33,171 nucleotides of DNA from Minisyncoccota bacterium (GTDB taxonomy: Bacteria; Patescibacteriota; Minisyncoccia; Phycocordibacterales; UBA5272): assembly GCA_043740125.1 (NCBI GenBank), contig JAYUCW010000039.1, forward strand, positions 1 through 33,171, in the 5' to 3' direction. The number at the start of each line of letters is the position of its first letter. Within the stretch, counting starts at the first letter, position 1. The translations under genes were made by a program, and so were the position numbers. Positions 5,119 through 14,395 of the stretch are shown here, one piece after another. A model generated the notes under the pieces. It was given only the letters and a program-made list of their open reading frames with translations. It did not search any database and was not told the origin of the DNA.

Positions 5119-6603
5119 TTACCTTGTAAGGAATTTATCCAAAATTCCTCCATGTTCCTTCACATACTGGCGTATTTTTCTTTTCGCAAGTGTTGTCTTT
5201 GCCATGTCTATCCATTTTCGTTTTGGTGAAGCAGATTCTTTTACTTCTATTTCTACAACATCGCGGTTATTAAGTTTTGTATCAAGTGGAACAAGCTTTC
5301 CATTTACTTTTACTCCTGCTACATGGTCACCAATATCAGAGTGGACTGCATAAGCAAAATCAATCGGCGTAGATCCATATGGCAGGTCAATCACGTCCCC
5401 CTTTGGAGTAAGAATGAATACTCGATGCTGAAAAAAGTCTTCCTTAAGATGTTTCATAAAGTCCTTGTGTGGCTCAATATCTTTTTGCCACTCAAGAAGT
5501 TCTTTGGTCCATCCAGTTTTTTTGATAAGATCTTCTTTTGTAGCACCACTTCCAAGTTCTTTATACGAAAGGTGACTTGCGACACCATATTCTGCTTCTC
5601 TATGCATTTCTTTTGTACGAATTTGAATTTCGAGGGTGTTGCCATCACCAGAAAATATAGTTGTATGAAGTGATCTGTAGCCATTTGGCTTTGGCACGGC
5701 GATATAGTCCTTGAATCTTCCAGGTACAGGTCTGTAGAAACCATGAATGACTCCGAGCGCTTGGTAACAGTCTGATATAGTTGGAACAATAATACGGAGT
5801 GCGAGTACATCATGCACTTTAGATTCATCCATTTTGTAACGCTTAAGCTTTTGCCATAATGAGTAGAGGTGTTTTACTCGGTGGTCGATCTGTTCTATTT
5901 CGACATCAAAAATTTGAAGTTCGTTTTTAAAAGTTGCAACTACTTTTTCTAATTGCTCATCTGATACTGGATTCATTGTTTTGAAAAGATCTACCGTTTT
6001 TTTGTATTCTTCAGGGTAGACATAGGGAAAGGCTGCATCTTCAAGCTGTGCTTTAAGTCGCCCCATACCAAGGCGGTCGGCAAGACGAGCGTGAATTTCA
6101 AGAGTTTCAAGAGCAATGCGTTTTTGTTTGTCAGGGGAAACATACTGAAGTGTTTGAATATTGTGAAGTCTGTCGCAGAGCTTGATGACAACCACTCGTA
6201 TGTCATCTGCCATCGCGATGAAAAATTTTCGAAGACTTTCGACGTGACGTTCTGTCCCCGTGTAGCGGAGCTTTCCAAGCTTGGTCACTCCTTCAACTAA
6301 CTTGGTGATGTGTTCACCGAAGGCTTGTGTCATTTCGATATCAGTCACGCTTGTATCTTCAAGAACGTCATGCATGATACCAGCCGCGATAGTGTCAGCA
6401 TCCATCTTAAGCATCGCTAAGTTAATTCCTGTTGCAAAAACATGGTTATAATATGGTTCGCCAGATTTTCGTTGCTGTCCTGCGTGAGCCTGCTGTGCAA
6501 AAGCACACGCATGTTTAATGAGTGACTTATCTGCCTCGCCCAGGTCAGGGAGGAGGGCAAAAATTCTATCGGGATTGGTGTCAGAATAAGGTCGAGAGTC
6601 CAT
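5119..6603 (-). CDS. rel: bifunctional (p)ppGpp synthetase/hydrolase, short Rel/SpoT homologue (HD + synthetase + TGS)
   Basis: HD motif region HDVLEDT. Synthetase region YRSLHTTI...EIQIRT. TGS-like FILTPKGDVIDLPYGSTPIDFAYAVHSDIG. 494 aa, so the C-terminal regulatory part is truncated. Confidence 0.85.
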   Translation of the reverse strand: MDSRPYSDTNPDRIFALLPDLGEADKSLIKHACAFAQQAHAGQQRKSGEPYYNHVFATGINLAMLKMDADTIAAGIMHDVLEDTSVTDIEMTQAFGEHITKLVEGVTKLGKLRYTGTERHVESLRKFFIAMADDIRVVVIKLCDRLHNIQTLQYVSPDKQKRIALETLEIHARLADRLGMGRLKAQLEDAAFPYVYPEEYKKTVDLFKTMNPVSDEQLEKVVATFKNELQIFDVEIEQIDHRVKHLYSLWQKLKRYKMDESKVHDVLALRIIVPTISDCYQALGVIHGFYRPVPGRFKDYIAVPKPNGYRSLHTTIFSGDGNTLEIQIRTKEMHREAEYGVASHLSYKELGSGATKEDLIKKTGWTKELLEWQKDIEPHKDFMKHLKEDFFQHRVFILTPKGDVIDLPYGSTPIDFAYAVHSDIGDHVAGVKVNGKLVPLDTKLNNRDVVEIEVKESASPKRKWIDMAKTTLAKRKIRQYVKEHGGILDKFLTR

Positions 6604-6682
6604 TACATTACAATACCATAAGATGGTTGTTAGGGGCTAGTAGTTAGTGTTTAGTGAATACAGAAAATAGTGAGGTGTTTTT

Positions 6683-7399
6683 TTAAAAAAAGTATGGTAT
6701 TGCGAGAGCAAGAGAAAAAATGAGTGAATATATAATGATATAGTCGGTAACTTTTTTCGGAAGTTTGTAGATAACCTTTTTACCAAGAAATACGGTGAGG
6801 AGCATGAAAGGAAAGAGAACAAGAATAGAAAGCATGTCATGAAAAGGGATTGACTCGTGGATCAATCGAGTAGAGAGCATACCAATACCGCTAGCAAGGA
6901 AGACTACCGCAATGGTGCCCTGTACAACAGCAAGTGAATGACCCTTTGCGAAGAGGTATCCTTGACGTAGTGGTCCGACAGACATTCCGAATGATTGGAG
7001 GAATGCTGTGATGAATCCGGAGACAAAGAGACCGTAATGTTTATTTTTTGTGTCTACGTGTGCAACTTTTTTGAAATATTTATAAATATACATAAACCCA
7101 GAAAGTATAAAAATTGTAATGATTACTTTTTGTGGGATGACACCTACAAAGTATCCGCCGACTATTCCACCGATTAGTCCGTAGATTGCGAAACCAAATG
7201 CATCTTCCCAGAGAATATCTTTCCAAAAAATAATAATACGAGCAAGTGCCCCCATGACGAGGAATACGGTTGTAAGGAAAAGCACTTTATGTGGCTCGTA
7301 GAAGTGAAGCAGTAGCGGATTGATATGAAGTGATCCAGGTAAGTTAATAACCGTGCCAAGGAATACAACAACAAGAGCGAGAGAGTAGAATGCCAGCAT
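6683..7399 (-). CDS. TauE/SafE-like anion exporter family membrane protein
   Basis: 238 aa, about 7 TM helices, with glycine-rich helix GLIGGIVGGYFVG. Family call is from memory. Confidence 0.45.
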   Translation of the reverse strand: MLAFYSLALVVVFLGTVINLPGSLHINPLLLHFYEPHKVLFLTTVFLVMGALARIIIFWKDILWEDAFGFAIYGLIGGIVGGYFVGVIPQKVIITIFILSGFMYIYKYFKKVAHVDTKNKHYGLFVSGFITAFLQSFGMSVGPLRQGYLFAKGHSLAVVQGTIAVVFLASGIGMLSTRLIHESIPFHDMLSILVLFPFMLLTVFLGKKVIYKLPKKVTDYIIIYSLIFSLALAIPYFF

Positions 7400-7415
7400 G
7401 ATTGGTAAAGTGTAG

Positions 7416-7439
7416 CAAAAAAAGCCGCGTGTGCGCGGC
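7416..7439 (-). terminator. rho-independent terminator (minus strand)
   Basis: GCCGCG-TGTG-CGCGGC hairpin. On the minus strand it is followed by a T-run (plus-strand A-run 7416-7423). Confidence 0.5.
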
Positions 7440-7483
7440 TAAGAATAGCTATATAAAATAGATATTGGTGAAGTTGGTGTAAT

Positions 7484-7517
7484 AAAAAATAAAGCCGGGC
7501 AGTGTATGTGCTGCCCG
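7484..7517 (-). terminator. rho-independent terminator after the 82-aa membrane protein gene
   Basis: CGGGCAG...CTGCCCG stem. The minus strand reads the stem, then CTTTATTTTTT. Confidence 0.5.
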
Positions 7518-7536
7518 ACTCGATGTCGTTCGTTTT

Positions 7537-7785
7537 TTACCCTGGAGGGTTTTGTTCTTTTTCCTTGAAAGCAAAACGTATCCCGACTATTATTAGGATC
7601 ATTATAAATGTCCAAGTGATAACAGCACGGAATATGGGATTCAAATCGATCCGACTGATCTCTCGGGAGAGTATCTGGATGGTGGGCATGGCAGTGAGTA
7701 ACAAGACCCCACTCACATAAACACTGAGAGCAAGTACAAAGATTGCTCCAGCAAAATTGACAAGAAGACGTGGAATTTTTTCCAT
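7537..7785 (-). CDS. small membrane protein, 2-3 TM helices, unknown function
   Basis: 82-aa ORF with a clear hydrophobic pattern, followed by terminators. Confidence 0.4.
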   Translation of the reverse strand: MEKIPRLLVNFAGAIFVLALSVYVSGVLLLTAMPTIQILSREISRIDLNPIFRAVITWTFIMILIIVGIRFAFKEKEQNPPG

Positions 7786-7924
7786 GGTTAGCTCCAGAAA
7801 AGTGGTTGAAAGTGCAAATTATATTATATCATTAATATATATAAAAGTCAAGTAAAAGTTGACATAACATAGTATAATTGGTAGTATTTTAAGTTGTTTC
7901 GTCTACTTTTTTAGAAAGGGAACT

Positions 7925-8272
7925 ATGTTCATTAGTACTGATGATCGAAGCGCGGGTGAGACCAAAATTTCTCCTGCTTCACAAGCTAGATCTTCTAGTC
8001 TTTGGGTTTTGTTAGTAAGAACAAGCCAGATTCTTCAAATTTGTGAACCGGATATACTTGGTTGTATGACGGAAGCCCGTTTTAAGGTGCTTGCAGCTAT
8101 TTTGAAAGAGCCTCCATCAAAGATTCAAGCTCAGTTTGCGTGTGTTTCAGAAACAAAAAAGCCCCAAGCTCTCAAGGTTGGGGAAGAAAACGAGATGCGC
8201 ATACTTAATCAACAGATTCAGTTTGTCGCGTGTAGGTGTATGTTTTACTTTGAAGTTGTACAGTCTCTTTAA
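7925..8272 (+). CDS. hypothetical protein (weak call; may instead be a noncoding transcript)
   Basis: 115-aa ORF between promoter-like sequence near 7859-7890 and the terminator at 8301-8325. No family recognised and composition is unremarkable. Confidence 0.2.
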   Translation: MFISTDDRSAGETKISPASQARSSSLWVLLVRTSQILQICEPDILGCMTEARFKVLAAILKEPPSKIQAQFACVSETKKPQALKVGEENEMRILNQQIQFVACRCMFYFEVVQSL

Positions 8273-8293
8273 GTCAGCGCAGTTTTAACTCCA

Positions 8294-8330
8294 AAACAAA
8301 ATGTTCTCAAGTGAGGACATTTTTTATTTT
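8294..8330. terminator. bidirectional terminator hairpin
   Basis: ATGTTCTC-AAGT-GAGGACAT with an A-rich 5' flank and a T5-A-T6 3' flank. Confidence 0.5.
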
Positions 8331-8443
8331 TTAGGTTCCAATTTATGTGGATTATGATTCGGGTAGGTCTTATCACTACATCTCTCAGGAATTGTCTTTG
8401 TTCCGGTCCACAGCTGCAACTTCGTAACAGCTGGACTGCGGGA
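8324..8443 (-). pseudogene. displaced, divergent duplicate of the last 25 or so codons of topA, in frame directly after the topA TAG
   Basis: Minus-strand translation is SRSPAVTKLQLWTGTKTIPERCSDKTYPNHNPHKLEPKK*. The topA tail is GTKTIPERCSDKSCPNHNPHKLQAK*. About 17 of the 22 aligned codons GTKTIPERCSDK..PNHNPHKL differ in nucleotides, but only 2 of those 22 residues differ. Confidence 0.6.
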
Positions 8444-10651
8444 CTATTTTGCCTGTAATTTGTGAGGGTTGTGGTTCGGGCAACTTTTGTCTGAGCAACG
8501 TTCAGGTATAGTTTTAGTCCCTTGCATCATAAGCTCATCACATTTTGTTCCATCTGCTTTTACATATGAGCAGCGATTACCTGTTGGGCGAGTCTTAATG
8601 ATGTGTTTACAATCTGGGTAGTTAGAGCATGAGTAGAAGACTCCGAAGCGTCCTTTTCTTTCTTCCATGTAGCCATCTTTACACTTGTTGCAGTGGACAC
8701 CTGTTGAATTGGCTTTTCGCATCTCCTCATCTTGCTCTATATATTTACACTTTGGATAATTATCACAGGCAATGAACTTACCGTAACGCCCTTCACGTTC
8801 CATGAGTTCACCTTTTTCACATTTTGGACATTTCTTGCCAAGCTTCTTCGGTCCTTCCATGACACTACCATCCATTTTCCTCGCACCCATACATTCTGGA
8901 TAGCGAATACAAGAGTAGAACTTGCCATTCTTTGCAAGTTTGATCACCATGTTCGCATCACACAGTGGGCACTGCATGCCGTCCGGTGCATCACCCATAC
9001 TTGTAGCCTTTTCGAGCTTGTCTTTTTCTTTTACATCTTTAATGAATGGTCCATAAAAGTCCTTCAGTGTTTTTAGGTATGTCGCTTTACCTTCTGAGAT
9101 GAGGTCAAGCTTGTCTTCCATGTCTGCAGTAAAGGTATCACTGATGTACTGTGCAAAATGTTCTTCAAGAAATGAGATAACCACTTCACCAGTATCAGTT
9201 GGATGAAGTGCTTTGTTGACTTTATCAACATATCCACGAGCTTCAATAGTGGAAAGAATGGAAGCATATGTCGAAGGTCTTCCGATACCACGCTTCTCAA
9301 GCTCCTTAATTAGCCCTGCTTCTGTATACCTGTTTGGCGGTTCTGTTTCTTTTTGGATAGACTGAAGTGTTGTGAGATTAAGTTGATCACCTTTTGAAAG
9401 ATCGGGTAAAATAACATCATCACCTCGTGAGTCAGGGTCAACTGCAAGCCATCCAGGAGAAAGCAAGATGGAGCCATTCACGGTGAAGTTAGGAATGCTC
9501 TTGGTAGTAATATTTGCAGTTACTTTGCTTCGCTTAATCTTGGCATCAACCATCTGACTTGCAACGGTGCGTTCCCAAATAAGGGAATAGAGACGTTTCT
9601 CATCATCTGTTGTGCCACCACTTCGAGTTGCAGCGTGTGTTGGGCGGACTGCTTCGTGGGCTTCTTGAGCATTTTTACTTTTGGTTTTGTATTGACGAAC
9701 TTGCACTTTATCTTTACCGTAATTTTTTTCTATCACTTGAGTTATCTCAGTGACTGCTTGTGTAGAGAGGGTAGTACTATCTGTACGCATGTAGGTGATG
9801 AGACCTTTTTCGTACAACTTCTGTGCGATGCCCATGGTACGTGATGGTGCATAGCCTAAGCGTGATGATGCAGCCTGTTGAAGTGTTGAAGTTGTAAATG
9901 GAGCTTTTGGTGAACGTGATGCTTCAGTGCTCTCTACATCAAGAATTTCCCATGATCCATTCTTTCCCTCACGAACAATTCTCTCTGCTTCATCTTTGTT
10001 ATTTGGCTGTACTTCACACTCCATTAATAATGGATAGGTTTTACTCTCAGCCATTCTGCCAACAGTTTTCCATTCTCCTGCGATAACGAAATAGGTCACA
10101 GGAATAAATGCGCGGATCTCTCGTTCTCGTTCCATGATGATACGAAGTGCGGGGGATTGTACGCGTCCTGCTGAGAGTCCATAACGAACCTTTTTCCAAA
10201 TAATACCAGAGAGGTCATATCCAACAAGACGGTCGAGTACTCGCCGTGCTTCTTGAGCTTCTTTCATCTTCATGTCAATCTCACGGGGGTGCTTGAGTGC
10301 TTCCTTGATGGCACTTTCGGTGATTTCGTGGAAGGTGACACGTTTAGCGCCGTCAAGCTCACATGCATCTTTAACATGCCACGCAATAGCTTCTCCTTCA
10401 CGATCGGGGTCGGTTGCGAGGATTACCTCATTAGCTTTTTTGGCGAGTGCTTTTATTTCAGCTATTACCTTTTCTTTACCAGGACTAACTTCGTAATGTG
10501 GAATGAAGCCTCCTTCGATGTCCACTGCTTTTTTATTACTCTTCGGCAGGTCTCTCACATGACCAACAGAAGCACGTACTTCGTACGCGCCGTCTAGATA
10601 TTTTGCAATTGTTTTTGCCTTTGAAGGACTTTCGACGATTAAGAGTTTCAT
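8444..10651 (-). CDS. topA: DNA topoisomerase I with multiple C-terminal zinc ribbons
   Basis: TOPRIM start MKLLIVESPSKAKTI. DPDREGEAIAWH. Active-site region YMRTDST. Repeated C-x-x-C ... C-x-x-C ribbons at the C-terminus. Confidence 0.95.
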   Translation of the reverse strand: MKLLIVESPSKAKTIAKYLDGAYEVRASVGHVRDLPKSNKKAVDIEGGFIPHYEVSPGKEKVIAEIKALAKKANEVILATDPDREGEAIAWHVKDACELDGAKRVTFHEITESAIKEALKHPREIDMKMKEAQEARRVLDRLVGYDLSGIIWKKVRYGLSAGRVQSPALRIIMEREREIRAFIPVTYFVIAGEWKTVGRMAESKTYPLLMECEVQPNNKDEAERIVREGKNGSWEILDVESTEASRSPKAPFTTSTLQQAASSRLGYAPSRTMGIAQKLYEKGLITYMRTDSTTLSTQAVTEITQVIEKNYGKDKVQVRQYKTKSKNAQEAHEAVRPTHAATRSGGTTDDEKRLYSLIWERTVASQMVDAKIKRSKVTANITTKSIPNFTVNGSILLSPGWLAVDPDSRGDDVILPDLSKGDQLNLTTLQSIQKETEPPNRYTEAGLIKELEKRGIGRPSTYASILSTIEARGYVDKVNKALHPTDTGEVVISFLEEHFAQYISDTFTADMEDKLDLISEGKATYLKTLKDFYGPFIKDVKEKDKLEKATSMGDAPDGMQCPLCDANMVIKLAKNGKFYSCIRYPECMGARKMDGSVMEGPKKLGKKCPKCEKGELMEREGRYGKFIACDNYPKCKYIEQDEEMRKANSTGVHCNKCKDGYMEERKGRFGVFYSCSNYPDCKHIIKTRPTGNRCSYVKADGTKCDELMMQGTKTIPERCSDKSCPNHNPHKLQAK

Positions 10652-10761: not shown

Positions 10762-11670
10762 CTACACTAAACGGCGGACTTCACCAAATGTTTCTTCGAG
10801 GGCACCGGATAATTCAAGAGAGGAGAACGCAGCAATGAAATCTTCGAATGGTAAGTGCGTTAAAGCAAAAAGTGAATCTTTATTTGTTGGTTCACGAAGA
10901 TTTTTGATAATACTTTTTTCGTTGTCAGTATATTTTTCAAGTGAGGATATATTGGCTTCTTCTTCCTTGGTTTTTGGTTCTGAGATATGTAAAAGTGCAA
11001 AAAGATCAGTGGGGGAGGTTATAGAGTAGGCACCTTCACGGATGAGCATATTGGTACCAAATGCAGTCGGAGAAAAAATATCTCCTGGAACTGCCCCAAC
11101 ATCACGCCCAAGTTCAATCGCATGCCTAGCAGTGATGAGTGTGCCTGATTTTTCTTCTGCTTCAATAAATAATACTGCGTCAGATAGTGCCGCCATAACA
11201 CGGTTTCTTTGGGGGAATGTCCACAATGCTGCGACGGTGTCACTTGGAAGTTCAGAGATGAGCGCCCCATTGTTTTCTACAATGTCTTGTGCGAGGTTTC
11301 TGTGTGCGCTTGGATAGAGAACTTTCTCATTTAGGCCACTTCCAGGAATGGCAATAGTAATGAGATTATTTTTGAGTGCACTTTTATGTGCGAGACTATC
11401 TATCCCAAAAGCAAGACCAGATATAATGACGACCTCTTGACCTTCTAAGGATGCAAGTAACATTTCAAGAGCTTGTTTTCCGTAGGCAGTATTTTTACGT
11501 GATCCAACGATGGTGAGAATACGAGGAGTTGCTCTCCCGTAGAGGTCTATTTTTACTTCAGGAAGTTTACCTTTAATATGTATCTCTTTTGGAATCTGAT
11601 GAAGTTCAAGAAGACGACCAAGAAGAGGGTGGTCGGCAAAATCTTTTTTAAGGATGGTGGTTGTTTCCAT
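10762..11670 (-). CDS. dprA: DNA processing protein DprA/Smf
   Basis: GSRKNTAYGKQA, SGLAFGIDSLAHKSAL and FPQRNRVMAALSDAVLFIEAEEKSGTLITARHAIELGRDVGAVPG. Start trimmed to the ATG at 11670 because a strong terminator (11692-11727) lies inside the longer 11748 ORF. Confidence 0.85.
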   Translation of the reverse strand: METTTILKKDFADHPLLGRLLELHQIPKEIHIKGKLPEVKIDLYGRATPRILTIVGSRKNTAYGKQALEMLLASLEGQEVVIISGLAFGIDSLAHKSALKNNLITIAIPGSGLNEKVLYPSAHRNLAQDIVENNGALISELPSDTVAALWTFPQRNRVMAALSDAVLFIEAEEKSGTLITARHAIELGRDVGAVPGDIFSPTAFGTNMLIREGAYSITSPTDLFALLHISEPKTKEEEANISSLEKYTDNEKSIIKNLREPTNKDSLFALTHLPFEDFIAAFSSLELSGALEETFGEVRRLV

Positions 11671-11691
11671 AACTATAAAAAGTATATCAAA

Positions 11692-11727
11692 TAAAAAAGT
11701 GCGTACGTTAGTATTACGTACGCACTT
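11692..11727 (-). terminator. rho-independent terminator after the 259-aa membrane protein gene
   Basis: 11-bp stem AAGTGCGTACG/CGTACGCACTT. The minus strand continues with TTTTTTATTT. Confidence 0.6.
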
Positions 11728-11738
11728 AAGAATCTTCT

Positions 11739-12518
11739 TTAGAAACATAGAACTGCATGTTCATAAAACTTTGCTCTTACTTCAAATGGTTTGTATCCAC
11801 CTGCAAATGAAAAGAGATCATCCCAGTCTCTTTCAAACTCGCCCCAAGTAGCTTCCTTTCTATACGAGACTATAATGTCTGTCTTCTCGTTAGAATTCTT
11901 AAAAAGATACCTTGGATGAATGGCAATTTCTTTTACATATCTCCAAAATGGGAGACTTGGAAGCTTTTGCTCAATGGTGTATTCAACAGCATCGATAAAT
12001 CCTTCTGCTTCCACAGGAAGATCTTTTGACGAAAATAGAGAGATTTCATTTCGAGGTAGAAGTGGGCATGTACCTTGAAGCACTTTTTTGGCAACATCTT
12101 TTGTATAACCAGCATACGTTAAGTATTTTTTTGATGAGCCACTATCAAGTTCTAGTAATCTGTTATTTCCTTCTGTTACAAAGTGTGATGGGTCAGGAAA
12201 AAGAATTCTTGTACCCGTTGTGTTTCTATTAAGTGTATGAGACTTTGAAAGTGTAAGGTCACGAAAAAACTGAAATTGCCACAGTCCAAAGATAGTGCTA
12301 CACAAAAATACAAAGATGACGCTTACTTTGATCATAGCAACCTCTTTAGTTGTATCTCTAAAGTCAAACAACCAAGAAAAAAGTGGTTTAAGTATCCATC
12401 CGAGTAAAGCAAGTAGTGCTCCAAGCAGCATCAGAAACGCCGCCGCAAAAACCCCATGGTGTTCTTGTGGAGGCGCGCTCGGAGTACTTTTTTCTTCTTC
12501 ATTAAAGAACCAGCCCAT
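11739..12518 (-). CDS. hypothetical membrane-anchored protein (two N-terminal TM helices plus about 170-aa outer domain)
   Basis: Long ORF with TM segments FAAAFLMLLGALLALLGWIL and VSVIFVFLCSTIFGLW. No family recognised. Confidence 0.5.
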   Translation of the reverse strand: MGWFFNEEEKSTPSAPPQEHHGVFAAAFLMLLGALLALLGWILKPLFSWLFDFRDTTKEVAMIKVSVIFVFLCSTIFGLWQFQFFRDLTLSKSHTLNRNTTGTRILFPDPSHFVTEGNNRLLELDSGSSKKYLTYAGYTKDVAKKVLQGTCPLLPRNEISLFSSKDLPVEAEGFIDAVEYTIEQKLPSLPFWRYVKEIAIHPRYLFKNSNEKTDIIVSYRKEATWGEFERDWDDLFSFAGGYKPFEVRAKFYEHAVLCF

Positions 12519-14008: not shown

Positions 14009-14156
14009 AAATGATGCAGTGGTCGAGAAGCTTGGCTTCGAAGATGTCTAAGGTCATCAGACCGAAGACCAAAAAGAGGCCGGTAGGCTAATTAGTAAGC
14101 ACCACTCTGAATTCTGGTAAATTAAATAAGTTATTATAGACGAAATGATGCAGTGG
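14009..14156 (+). repeat. 14-bp perfect direct repeat of the tRNA-Cys 5' end bracketing a 120-nt insert
   Basis: AAATGATGCAGTGG occurs at 14009-14022 and again at 14143-14156. The second copy is the true 5' end of tRNA-Cys plus 4 upstream nt. Confidence 0.7.
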
Positions 14157-14223
14157 CGAAGAGGCCTAACGCTGCGGTTTGCAAAACCGCCATTCGCGGG
14201 TTCGACTCCCGCCTGCATCTCCA
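14147..14223 (+). tRNA. tRNA-Cys (anticodon GCA), CCA encoded
   Basis: Acceptor GATGCAG/CTGCATC, discriminator T. Anticodon stem GCGGT/ACCGC with loop TTGCAAA. T-arm GCGGG-TTCGACT-CCCGC, then CCA. Confidence 0.85.
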
Positions 14224-14395
14224 AAAATAAGCGAAGCATTTTTTGAGATGCAGGAAGACATGGCCCGCGCCATGTCTGTCGGGAGTCGAAGCGCGCAGCG
14301 ATATTTTGCTAGTAAGCAAAATCGCGAGCGGCGGTCGGCGAGAAACTTTTGCGACGGCAAAATTTTACTTGCCGAAGACATTCCCGCCTGCATCT
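14207..14395 (+). repeat. 14-bp perfect direct repeat of the tRNA-Cys 3' end bracketing a 161-nt G+C-rich hairpin-dense insert
   Basis: TCCCGCCTGCATCT occurs at 14207-14220 (in the tRNA) and at 14382-14395. The insert contains GACATGGC-CCGC-GCCATGTC and other stems, plus GAGATGCAGG complementary to the tRNA 3' end. Confidence 0.7.

Follow-up and report, generated by a model that had tools for sequence, protein, structure and literature searches.

The window analyzed here, a 33,171-nucleotide stretch of contig JAYUCW010000039.1 from the genome of a Minisyncoccota bacterium (G000; other G and L numbers denote related genomes and topA loci, respectively), carries topA on its reverse strand. The product of this gene has Pfam matches to Toprim, Topoisom_bac, and, three times, Zn_ribbon_Top1, and its translation terminates with ...GTKTIPERCSDKSCPNHNPHKLQAK-TAG. 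Beyond this stop, the same frame stays open for another 39 codons (SRSPAVTKLQLWTGTKTIPERCSDKTYPNHNPHKLEPKK-TAA, positions 8324 to 8443, with the TAA at 8324 to 8326), which contain the repeated segment GTKTIPERCSDK..PNHNPHKL. The features at the end of the gene are the following:

8444..10651, reverse strand: topA, DNA topoisomerase I, 735 amino acids (open reading frame [ORF] and its translation)
8444..8446, reverse strand: present topA stop, TAG
8456..8521, reverse strand: copy 1 (X), core of the working tail, GTKTIPERCSDKSCPNHNPHKL, in-frame end of topA
8324..8404, reverse strand: copy 2 (X'), displaced tail, GTKTIPERCSDKTYPNHNPHKLEPKK plus TAA, untranslated and decaying (Cys to Tyr)
8298..8323, no strand assigned: two-way terminator hairpin, directly after copy 2

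The core of copy 2 covers positions 8339 to 8404, and its offset of 117 nt from copy 1 places it in frame in G000. The hairpin that follows is likely the original topA terminator, shared with a convergent ORF at 7925 to 8272. In several relatives, relA/spoT comes directly after topA, while in G000 the interval between the two genes (5119 to 8272 of the window) holds this ORF (forward strand, 115 amino acids, no Pfam match) and a TauE-family exporter (6683 to 7399, reverse strand); the region downstream of topA is a variable spot.

Over 22 aligned codons, the two copies differ at 23 of 66 nucleotides, 18 of which are third codon positions. Although 19 of the 22 codons differ (about 17 according to an earlier note on this sequence), only two residues change, as that note had stated, namely, Ser to Thr and, at the last Cys of the terminal zinc ribbon, Cys to Tyr. 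Random placement of 23 substitutions never resulted in as few as two amino acid changes in 200,000 trials. In addition, 9 of the 10 two-fold codons differ between the copies, with ca. 43% each expected from the codon usage of the genome (P = 0.003). The synonymously diverged copy of the topA C terminus, lying in frame after the TAG over 39 codons, is thus confirmed, and its derivation from a diverged allele is supported; since the G000 copies are only 65% identical in nucleotides, recent slippage in this genome was rejected. Positions 7900 to 9000 were identical in contigs of four DNA metagenome runs (depth of 7 to 29), without joints or variants across the duplication, indicating that it is no assembly artifact. 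Assembled contigs of these four runs contained no excised or empty-site variants either.

The in-frame position of copy 2 in G000 speaks for read-through of the TAG, or its reassignment, which would add a pseudo-repeat to TopA and which the earlier note had kept as its less likely alternative. The remaining evidence refutes it, and we place its probability close to nil. TAG is the stop of 73 of the 267 long open frames in G000 (27%), which also speaks against reassignment, and no G000 tRNA has a CUA anticodon. In the sister genome G011, which has the same arrangement, the copies are separated by an in-frame TAA, and the offset of the copy in other relatives is 0, 1, or 2 modulo 3, with stops in between, for instance, directly before the second copy (Y[PL]-stop-PKTIPERC). 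Copy 2 also lacks one zinc-binding Cys, and the sole ORF over it starts with TTG, has no ribosome-binding site, and is not conserved. Given that frames are inconsistent and stops intervene, read-through and frameshift were both rejected; the tail duplication does recur in relatives, though not in the form of a translated extension. As regards stop usage in general, TAA ends 178 of the 267 long open frames of G000 and TGA only 16, besides the 73 with TAG.

Identity of the resident tail

When whole genomes were searched, 14 of 41 relatives, among them members of two other families, turned out to have a second copy of the tail downstream of topA. These copies lie in frame 0, 1, or 2, mostly with a preceding stop. 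In at least 13 related genomes, the tail copies are separated by a folded element, here called R1, at a spacing of 130 to 245 nt. On the TopA tree, R1-bearing loci are scattered, with several sister pairs in which one member has the element and the other does not, and G000 and G011 are nested among R1-bearing relatives. In G008, the second copy is reduced to PNHNPHKLDKK, and L080, G003, and G009 have no second copy.

Comparison with these relatives indicated which of the copies had been there before. The G000 copy 2 is nearest to the working tail of the closest relative, G003 (59 of 69 nt), while copy 1 matches that tail at no more than 51 of 69 nt. Copy 2 ends with LEPKK and a stop, as does the working tail of G009, and the Thr codon that precedes copy 2 fits MMTGTKT of the relatives, not MMQGTKT of G000 itself. 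The sister pairs gave the same picture. L080, a sister of G011 without the duplication, has a working tail that is 88% identical to the G011 copy 2 and 61% identical to the G011 copy 1; it shares with the former the Met in DKMC, and its downstream flank aligns with the flank after the G011 copy 2. In the near-identical pair formed by L092 (empty) and L121 (with R1), the topA genes are 92.5 to 94% identical over 2.1 kb up to ...GGCACCAAAAC, and identity drops to 70% in the 60-nt tail beyond ...GGAAGGCACCAAAAC. The displaced copy of L121, which contains indels, resembles the L092 tail (82% identity) more than the tail of L121 itself (65%).

Since tail and flank of element-free relatives match copy 2, the downstream copy is the resident tail in these sequence comparisons, and the upstream one arrives with the element. 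The claim that an incoming segment with its own topA 3' end displaced the resident one is therefore supported by the comparisons with G003, L080/G011, and L092/L121; the arrangement of a regenerated target with a displaced copy behind it recurs in the 14 of 41 relatives. A recombination junction within topA, which the earlier note had suggested looking for, was sharp in the pairs L092/L121 and L080/G011; in G000, sliding identity against five relatives revealed no clear step, as these relatives are 12 to 25% diverged everywhere (70 to 92% identity per sliding window).

The copy 2 sequences carry changes at residues that are invariant in all working tails (C to Y, K to stop, E to G, P to S, H to Y, and D to N), mostly of the G:C to A:T type. 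That of G011 is intact at the protein level. In this genome, the 11-nt repeat ACTGGGACTAA is found at the left ends of both copies and could mediate precise loss. At L019/L076 (G010), two tandem R1 units accompany three topA tail copies, in the order working tail, ..CSMYNPHKL.., and ..SNKTCPNHNPHKLEAK, an array that points to successive insertions at one site.

The similarity between copies has some puzzling aspects. Both copies share lineage-specific residues, and copy-to-copy identity is bimodal, with either 60 to 64 or 39 to 48 of 66 to 69 nt identical; the former class comprises L006, L014, L022, and L024. The Ser codon of C-S-D-K is TCA in the G000 copy 1 and the G011 (L002) copy 2 and AGT in the G000 copy 2 and the G011 (L002) copy 1, a reciprocal swap suggesting that the copies may have exchanged sequence. 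For a pseudogene abandoned long ago, copy 2 appears unexpectedly protein-like, which would be explained by such exchange or by excision cycles that reuse X'. Among diverged pairs, 57 of 95 two-fold codons differ (sum of per-pair counts) versus 46.6% between genomes; this modest excess may reflect AT drift of copy 2 or the survival of pairs less prone to recombinational deletion.

The R1 family and its probable trace at the G000 locus

We built a covariance model (R1) from the aligned spacers of the relatives' topA loci. The repeating unit consists of a tail copy X, the stop, a linker, arm 1, hairpin P1, arm 2, hairpins P2 and P3, and GTGACC. The core is made up of P2 (GGCGGAG..GAGCCGGGG), P3 (loop GCGACGGC), and GTGACC, which ends every R1 and lies directly before the displaced copy, and both ends of the unit fall at GAC(C)/NAAR (here and below, the slash marks the boundary). 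Compensatory changes were found at 27 of the 37 predicted base pairs in 14 sequences. In 51 R1 copies, in an alignment fitted to the R1 model itself, 95.3% of cells were paired versus 62.8% in shuffles and 33 to 50% in slid controls, and 36 of the 37 pairs had changes on both sides. The frequent G-U pairs of R1 place the structure on the sense strand of the upstream gene. R1 was present, always on the sense strand, at 13 of 80 further topA loci, all with a second copy behind it; 12 of these copies were recovered by a motif scan and the decayed one of L121 by alignment. A cmscan search of 10 topA loci, 8 of them with R1, against Rfam (including RtT, RF00391) gave no match on the element at an E value of ≤1. 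The literature that we searched contained no description of it either, and the family is apparently undescribed.

Across the order, R1 matches came from 234 of 301 genomes, which represent 152 of 190 genera, and the remaining 67 genomes had none. Five fully searched genomes of 0.7 to 0.8 Mb had 5, 9, 23, 33, and 38 copies, and G000 has 9 to 11 (9 firm). Most of the G000 copies immediately trail a tRNA gene in the same orientation, and behind them comes a 12- to 21-nt direct copy of the 3' end of that tRNA. In some genomes, most tRNA genes are trailed by R1, and tandem arrays occur. The window itself contains one complete example:

14242..14377, forward strand: complete R1 behind tRNA-Cys (14147..14223), covariance model match of 72.8 bits, E = 1e-17
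14382..14395, forward strand: displaced tRNA-Cys 3' end, TCCCGCCTGCATCT, 14 nt, repeat downstream of R1

The signature that the earlier note had likened to that at the tRNAs is hence rightly so described, as this R1 and the 14-nt copy behind it belong to the same element family; its arms are antisense to the acceptor and T-arm of tRNA-Cys. The whole arrangement (14242 to 14395) sits between tRNA-Cys and tRNA-Leu(taa), and this R1 probably lies inside a multi-tRNA transcript. Another R1 of G000, on contig C98 (961 to 1135), has a gene terminator instead of a tRNA before it and, behind it, the remnant of a tRNA 3' end with a terminal CCA (atcctctcgtctcctcca), a case that suggests R1 as a possible far end of larger, cargo-bearing inserts. 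In G194 (L030 versus L031), the R1 cores behind tRNA-Val and tRNA-Ala are 94% identical and the arms 45%; these cores were either copied between sites and refitted to their targets or homogenized by gene conversion.

The 5' part of R1 is the reverse complement of its target, split by P1. At tRNA genes, the order is anti-acceptor, P1, and anti-T-arm, and at topA it is anti-(ATHCCNGARNG), P1, and anti-(GGNACNAARACN). The longest complementary stretch averaged 10.65 nt with the element's own target, compared to 6.56 ± 1.42 nt with other targets. At topA, the arms track synonymous codons (ACG/ACT/ACC/ACA, AAG/AAA, and GGAC/GCAC/GTAC), and arm half 2 crosses the left boundary of the duplication (GGAC/N). 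At 49 of 57 sites that distinguish the tail copies, the arm had the Watson-Crick complement of copy 1, and at 3 that of copy 2 (binomial p of about 1e-11), with some G-U pairs tolerated. Judged from these sites, it is the regenerated copy upstream, not the one downstream, with which the arms pair or are coinherited.

At the G000 topA locus, the R1 covariance model gave no match in 8324..8443 (E ≤ 10, filters off). The 39 nt from the TAG to copy 2, a short form of the spacer common to G000 and G011, do contain two segments that resemble parts of the element:

8436..8446, reverse strand: TAGTCCC plus GCAG, corresponding to R1 arm half 2 and the 5' strand of P2; probable remnant, provides the topA stop
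8405..8436, reverse strand: hairpin GTCCAGCTG..CAGCTGTGGAC ending in GTGGACC; resembles R1 P3 and the GTGACC end

TAGTCCC comes directly after ...CAG GCA AAA, is found in both G000 and G011, and is antisense to GGGACTA of copy 1; this short match covaries with the unusual ACT Thr codon of copy 1 in the two genomes, and in the minimum-free-energy fold, GGGACUA and UAGUCCC are base-paired with each other. At the corresponding place, the R1 consensus is ..arm..G.CG[GC]AG. The hairpin is present in the same fold and is kept in G011 by changes on both sides, and GTGGACC, a short match to the R1 end, abuts copy 2 (GGA ACA AAG..). The duplication boundary is that of R1-bearing loci, with the spacer directly 3' of the gene end, on the sense strand, and followed by the displaced copy. 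From the 11-nt match, the hairpin, the terminal GTGGACC, the matching position, and the phylogenetic setting, we infer that the G000 spacer descends from R1.

Origin of the duplication

The explanation that we favor, and regard as probable, is that a module brought a replacement tail to topA, that copy 2 is the former 3' end of the gene, and that the module has since decayed. A small noncoding module would enter topA in the last zinc ribbon, at about the codons Gly-Thr/Lys-Thr (GGNAC/NAARACN), carrying a stop-terminated topA tail of its own (X, the present copy 1), then a short linker, the arms, and the core; the two arms would be antisense to 22 nt of the target and split by hairpin P1. Insertion would regenerate an intact topA and push the resident tail X' and its terminator downstream, where X', no longer translated, would decay (Cys to Tyr in this case). 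X would have evolved in another lineage, as a functional gene end, hence the almost exclusively synonymous differences between X and X'. An internal deletion would later have taken most of the module in the G000/G011 ancestor, leaving 39 nt with the end of an arm (now the TAG stop), the hairpin, and GTGGACC. We infer that R1 is mobile as a unit of X, arms, and core. The generic DNA segment of the earlier note is thereby refined to a specific, small, structured, noncoding module.

No element-encoded recombinase was found, either in the 39-nt spacer of G000 or in the 130- to 245-nt spacers of the relatives, which contain no ORF. G000 has one PF00589 (tyrosine recombinase) gene, on contig C76, away from the contig of the window, and its reverse transcriptase (RT) genes are on other contigs as well. 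Seven R1-bearing genomes lacked IS110 (PF01548) and, above the cutoff, TnpB (PF07282); RT was absent from G058 and G194, the two genomes richest in R1, and the Y1 transposase was absent from three R1-bearing genomes. None of the five (PF00589, Y1_Tnp, TnpB, RT, and IS110) had a consistent association with R1, and in the R1-dense regions of G058 we found only tRNA genes and unannotated ORFs of ≥90 amino acids. The four RVT_1 and four Y1_Tnp matches of G000 are an unusual load for 0.88 Mb. A diversity-generating retroelement was also considered and rejected: the differences between the copies are of all types (C<->T, A<->G, G<->A, and codon family switches) and not adenine specific, the protein is nearly unchanged, and RT is not adjacent in G000 and is missing from G058 and G194.

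A foreign topA 3' end could also have been acquired, for example by natural transformation, and joined in one event of homology-facilitated illegitimate recombination with no dedicated element, the R1 of the relatives being unrelated. This would agree with the absence of a match to the R1 model in the G000 spacer, with the presence of dprA next to topA (10762 to 11748), and with the variation downstream of topA among relatives. We nevertheless hold it to be very unlikely, given that all R1-bearing loci share the boundary G.GAC(C)/NAAR with G000, that the spacer starts with an arm-like antisense of copy 1 and ends with GTGGACC, that G000 and G011 have R1-bearing relatives all around them on the tree, and that independent sister pairs have sharp junctions at the same site. 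The sister comparisons also weigh against a local tandem duplication followed by long divergence, with copy 2 retained for a function (as a decoy, as a small ORF, or as a spare tail put back to use upon excision), because the tail of element-free sisters has its ortholog in copy 2, and copy 1 stands apart. Such a duplication, whose probability we put lower still, would account for the nearly identical copies of L006, L014, L022, and L024, for the lineage-specific residues common to both copies, and for the intact protein sequence of the G011 copy 2, but not for a copy 2 that has no conserved start codon or frame, is preceded by stops in most relatives (TAA in G011), and has suffered damaging changes (C to Y, K to stop, and the indels of L121).

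A different possibility concerns the role of R1 itself. R1 with its flanking copies might be a host-encoded RNA device that works at the 3' end of the transcript containing it, in processing, stability, termination, or as a switch for tRNAs and a few mRNAs, with the downstream copy as a designed part. Its location behind most tRNA genes of some genomes, its constant sense orientation with G-U pairs on that strand, and the covariation between the arms and the end of the upstream gene, which pairing within a transcript would be expected to produce, all fit this idea. However, presence is patchy between near-identical genomes, tandem arrays occur (including the two units at topA in G010), 67 of the 301 genomes do without R1, and the arm does not follow the downstream copy, which decays. 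On balance we find a host device unlikely; copy 2 is a displaced tail in either case.

Within the favored explanation of a module that replaced the topA tail, R1 might further represent a new class of guide-programmed mobile module without a protein gene, combining a copy of the target 3' end, split antisense arms, and a three-hairpin core. Arm half 2 would act as a splint, pairing both with the intact target (GGNAC/NAARACN) and with the joined unit ends (GTGACC/NAARACN), and either the RNA or single-stranded DNA itself or a recruited host enzyme would cut and join at GAC/N. Entry into conserved gene ends (tRNAs and topA) would be harmless, exit would be precise, and the displaced tail would serve as a reusable spare. 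We advance this part tentatively and consider it rather doubtful.

Significance and comparison with known systems

The in-frame pseudo-repeat behind topA is explained without recoding, and topA emerges as a recurrent insertion target in these bacteria, hit inside the last zinc ribbon. It is also the first place where this tRNA-trailing family can be read by means of synonymous sites, which is impossible at tRNA targets; it is these sites that indicate that the element brings a foreign tail, that the downstream copy is resident, and that the arms follow the incoming copy. The hosts are ultrasmall Paceibacteria, with up to 38 copies of R1 in 0.7-Mb genomes and the family in about three quarters of a Patescibacteria order. 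Should R1 be mobile, alone or via a host enzyme, it would represent a new mode of site-specific insertion and possibly a programmable tool, whereas an RNA device acting on its own transcript would mean that CPR bacteria control the 3' ends of tRNAs and mRNAs at a further, new level.

The closest parallel that we considered is the prophage e14 (and phage 21) at icd, where the target is likewise a protein gene, the element supplies the 3' end, and the original end is displaced as the direct repeat icdC. In Escherichia coli K-12, the last 165 nt of icd lie inside e14, and icd and icdC differ at 12 of these 165 nt, 11 of them third positions, with two amino acid changes. Differences are almost all synonymous in both systems (12 of 165 nt there and 23 of 66 nt at topA). 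However, e14 is a 15-kb prophage with the integrase intE and the excisionase xisE, while the intervening DNA at topA is 39 nt long (130 to 245 nt in relatives), noncoding, and folded, with arms antisense to its target.

The topA arrangement further agrees with what is generally the rule for tRNA-gene islands (PMC4383910), and protein-gene targets of islands are known as well (PMC8409611 and PMC4482086). Islander-type islands in tRNA and tmRNA genes, SGI1 at the 3' end of trmE, and the dusA islands resemble R1 in forming tandem arrays at one target, but they carry cargo and encode or borrow tyrosine integrases, whereas R1 units have no ORF. CIMEs and MITE-like elements are, like R1, tiny, multicopy, and without an enzyme of their own, presumably being moved by one encoded elsewhere. 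R1 differs from them in its conserved three-hairpin fold, strand-specific G-U pairs, and target-specific antisense arms and in having neither terminal inverted repeats nor a short target site duplication of fixed length.

In the IS110 bridge RNA, the omega RNA of TnpB/IscB, and the guide tetranucleotides of IS608, a structured noncoding part base-pairs with the target site. R1 similarly has a target-complementary segment, with two guide halves that flank a hairpin, but both halves are antisense to the same strand, and 14 to 80 nt of target are duplicated. To our knowledge, target duplication with same-strand guide halves occurs in none of the IS110, TnpB/IscB, and IS608 systems. Each of the RtT (178-bp) repeats (RF00391) behind E. 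coli tyrT contains a copy of the tRNA 3' end. They thus resemble R1 as repeats behind a tRNA gene, but are set apart by the lack of any Rfam match (RtT included) at the R1-bearing loci at an E value of ≤1; we know of RtT only as specific to one locus, not at protein-gene tails. The signature left at topA is, in summary, of a known kind, that of icd and icdC, and the vehicle is new.
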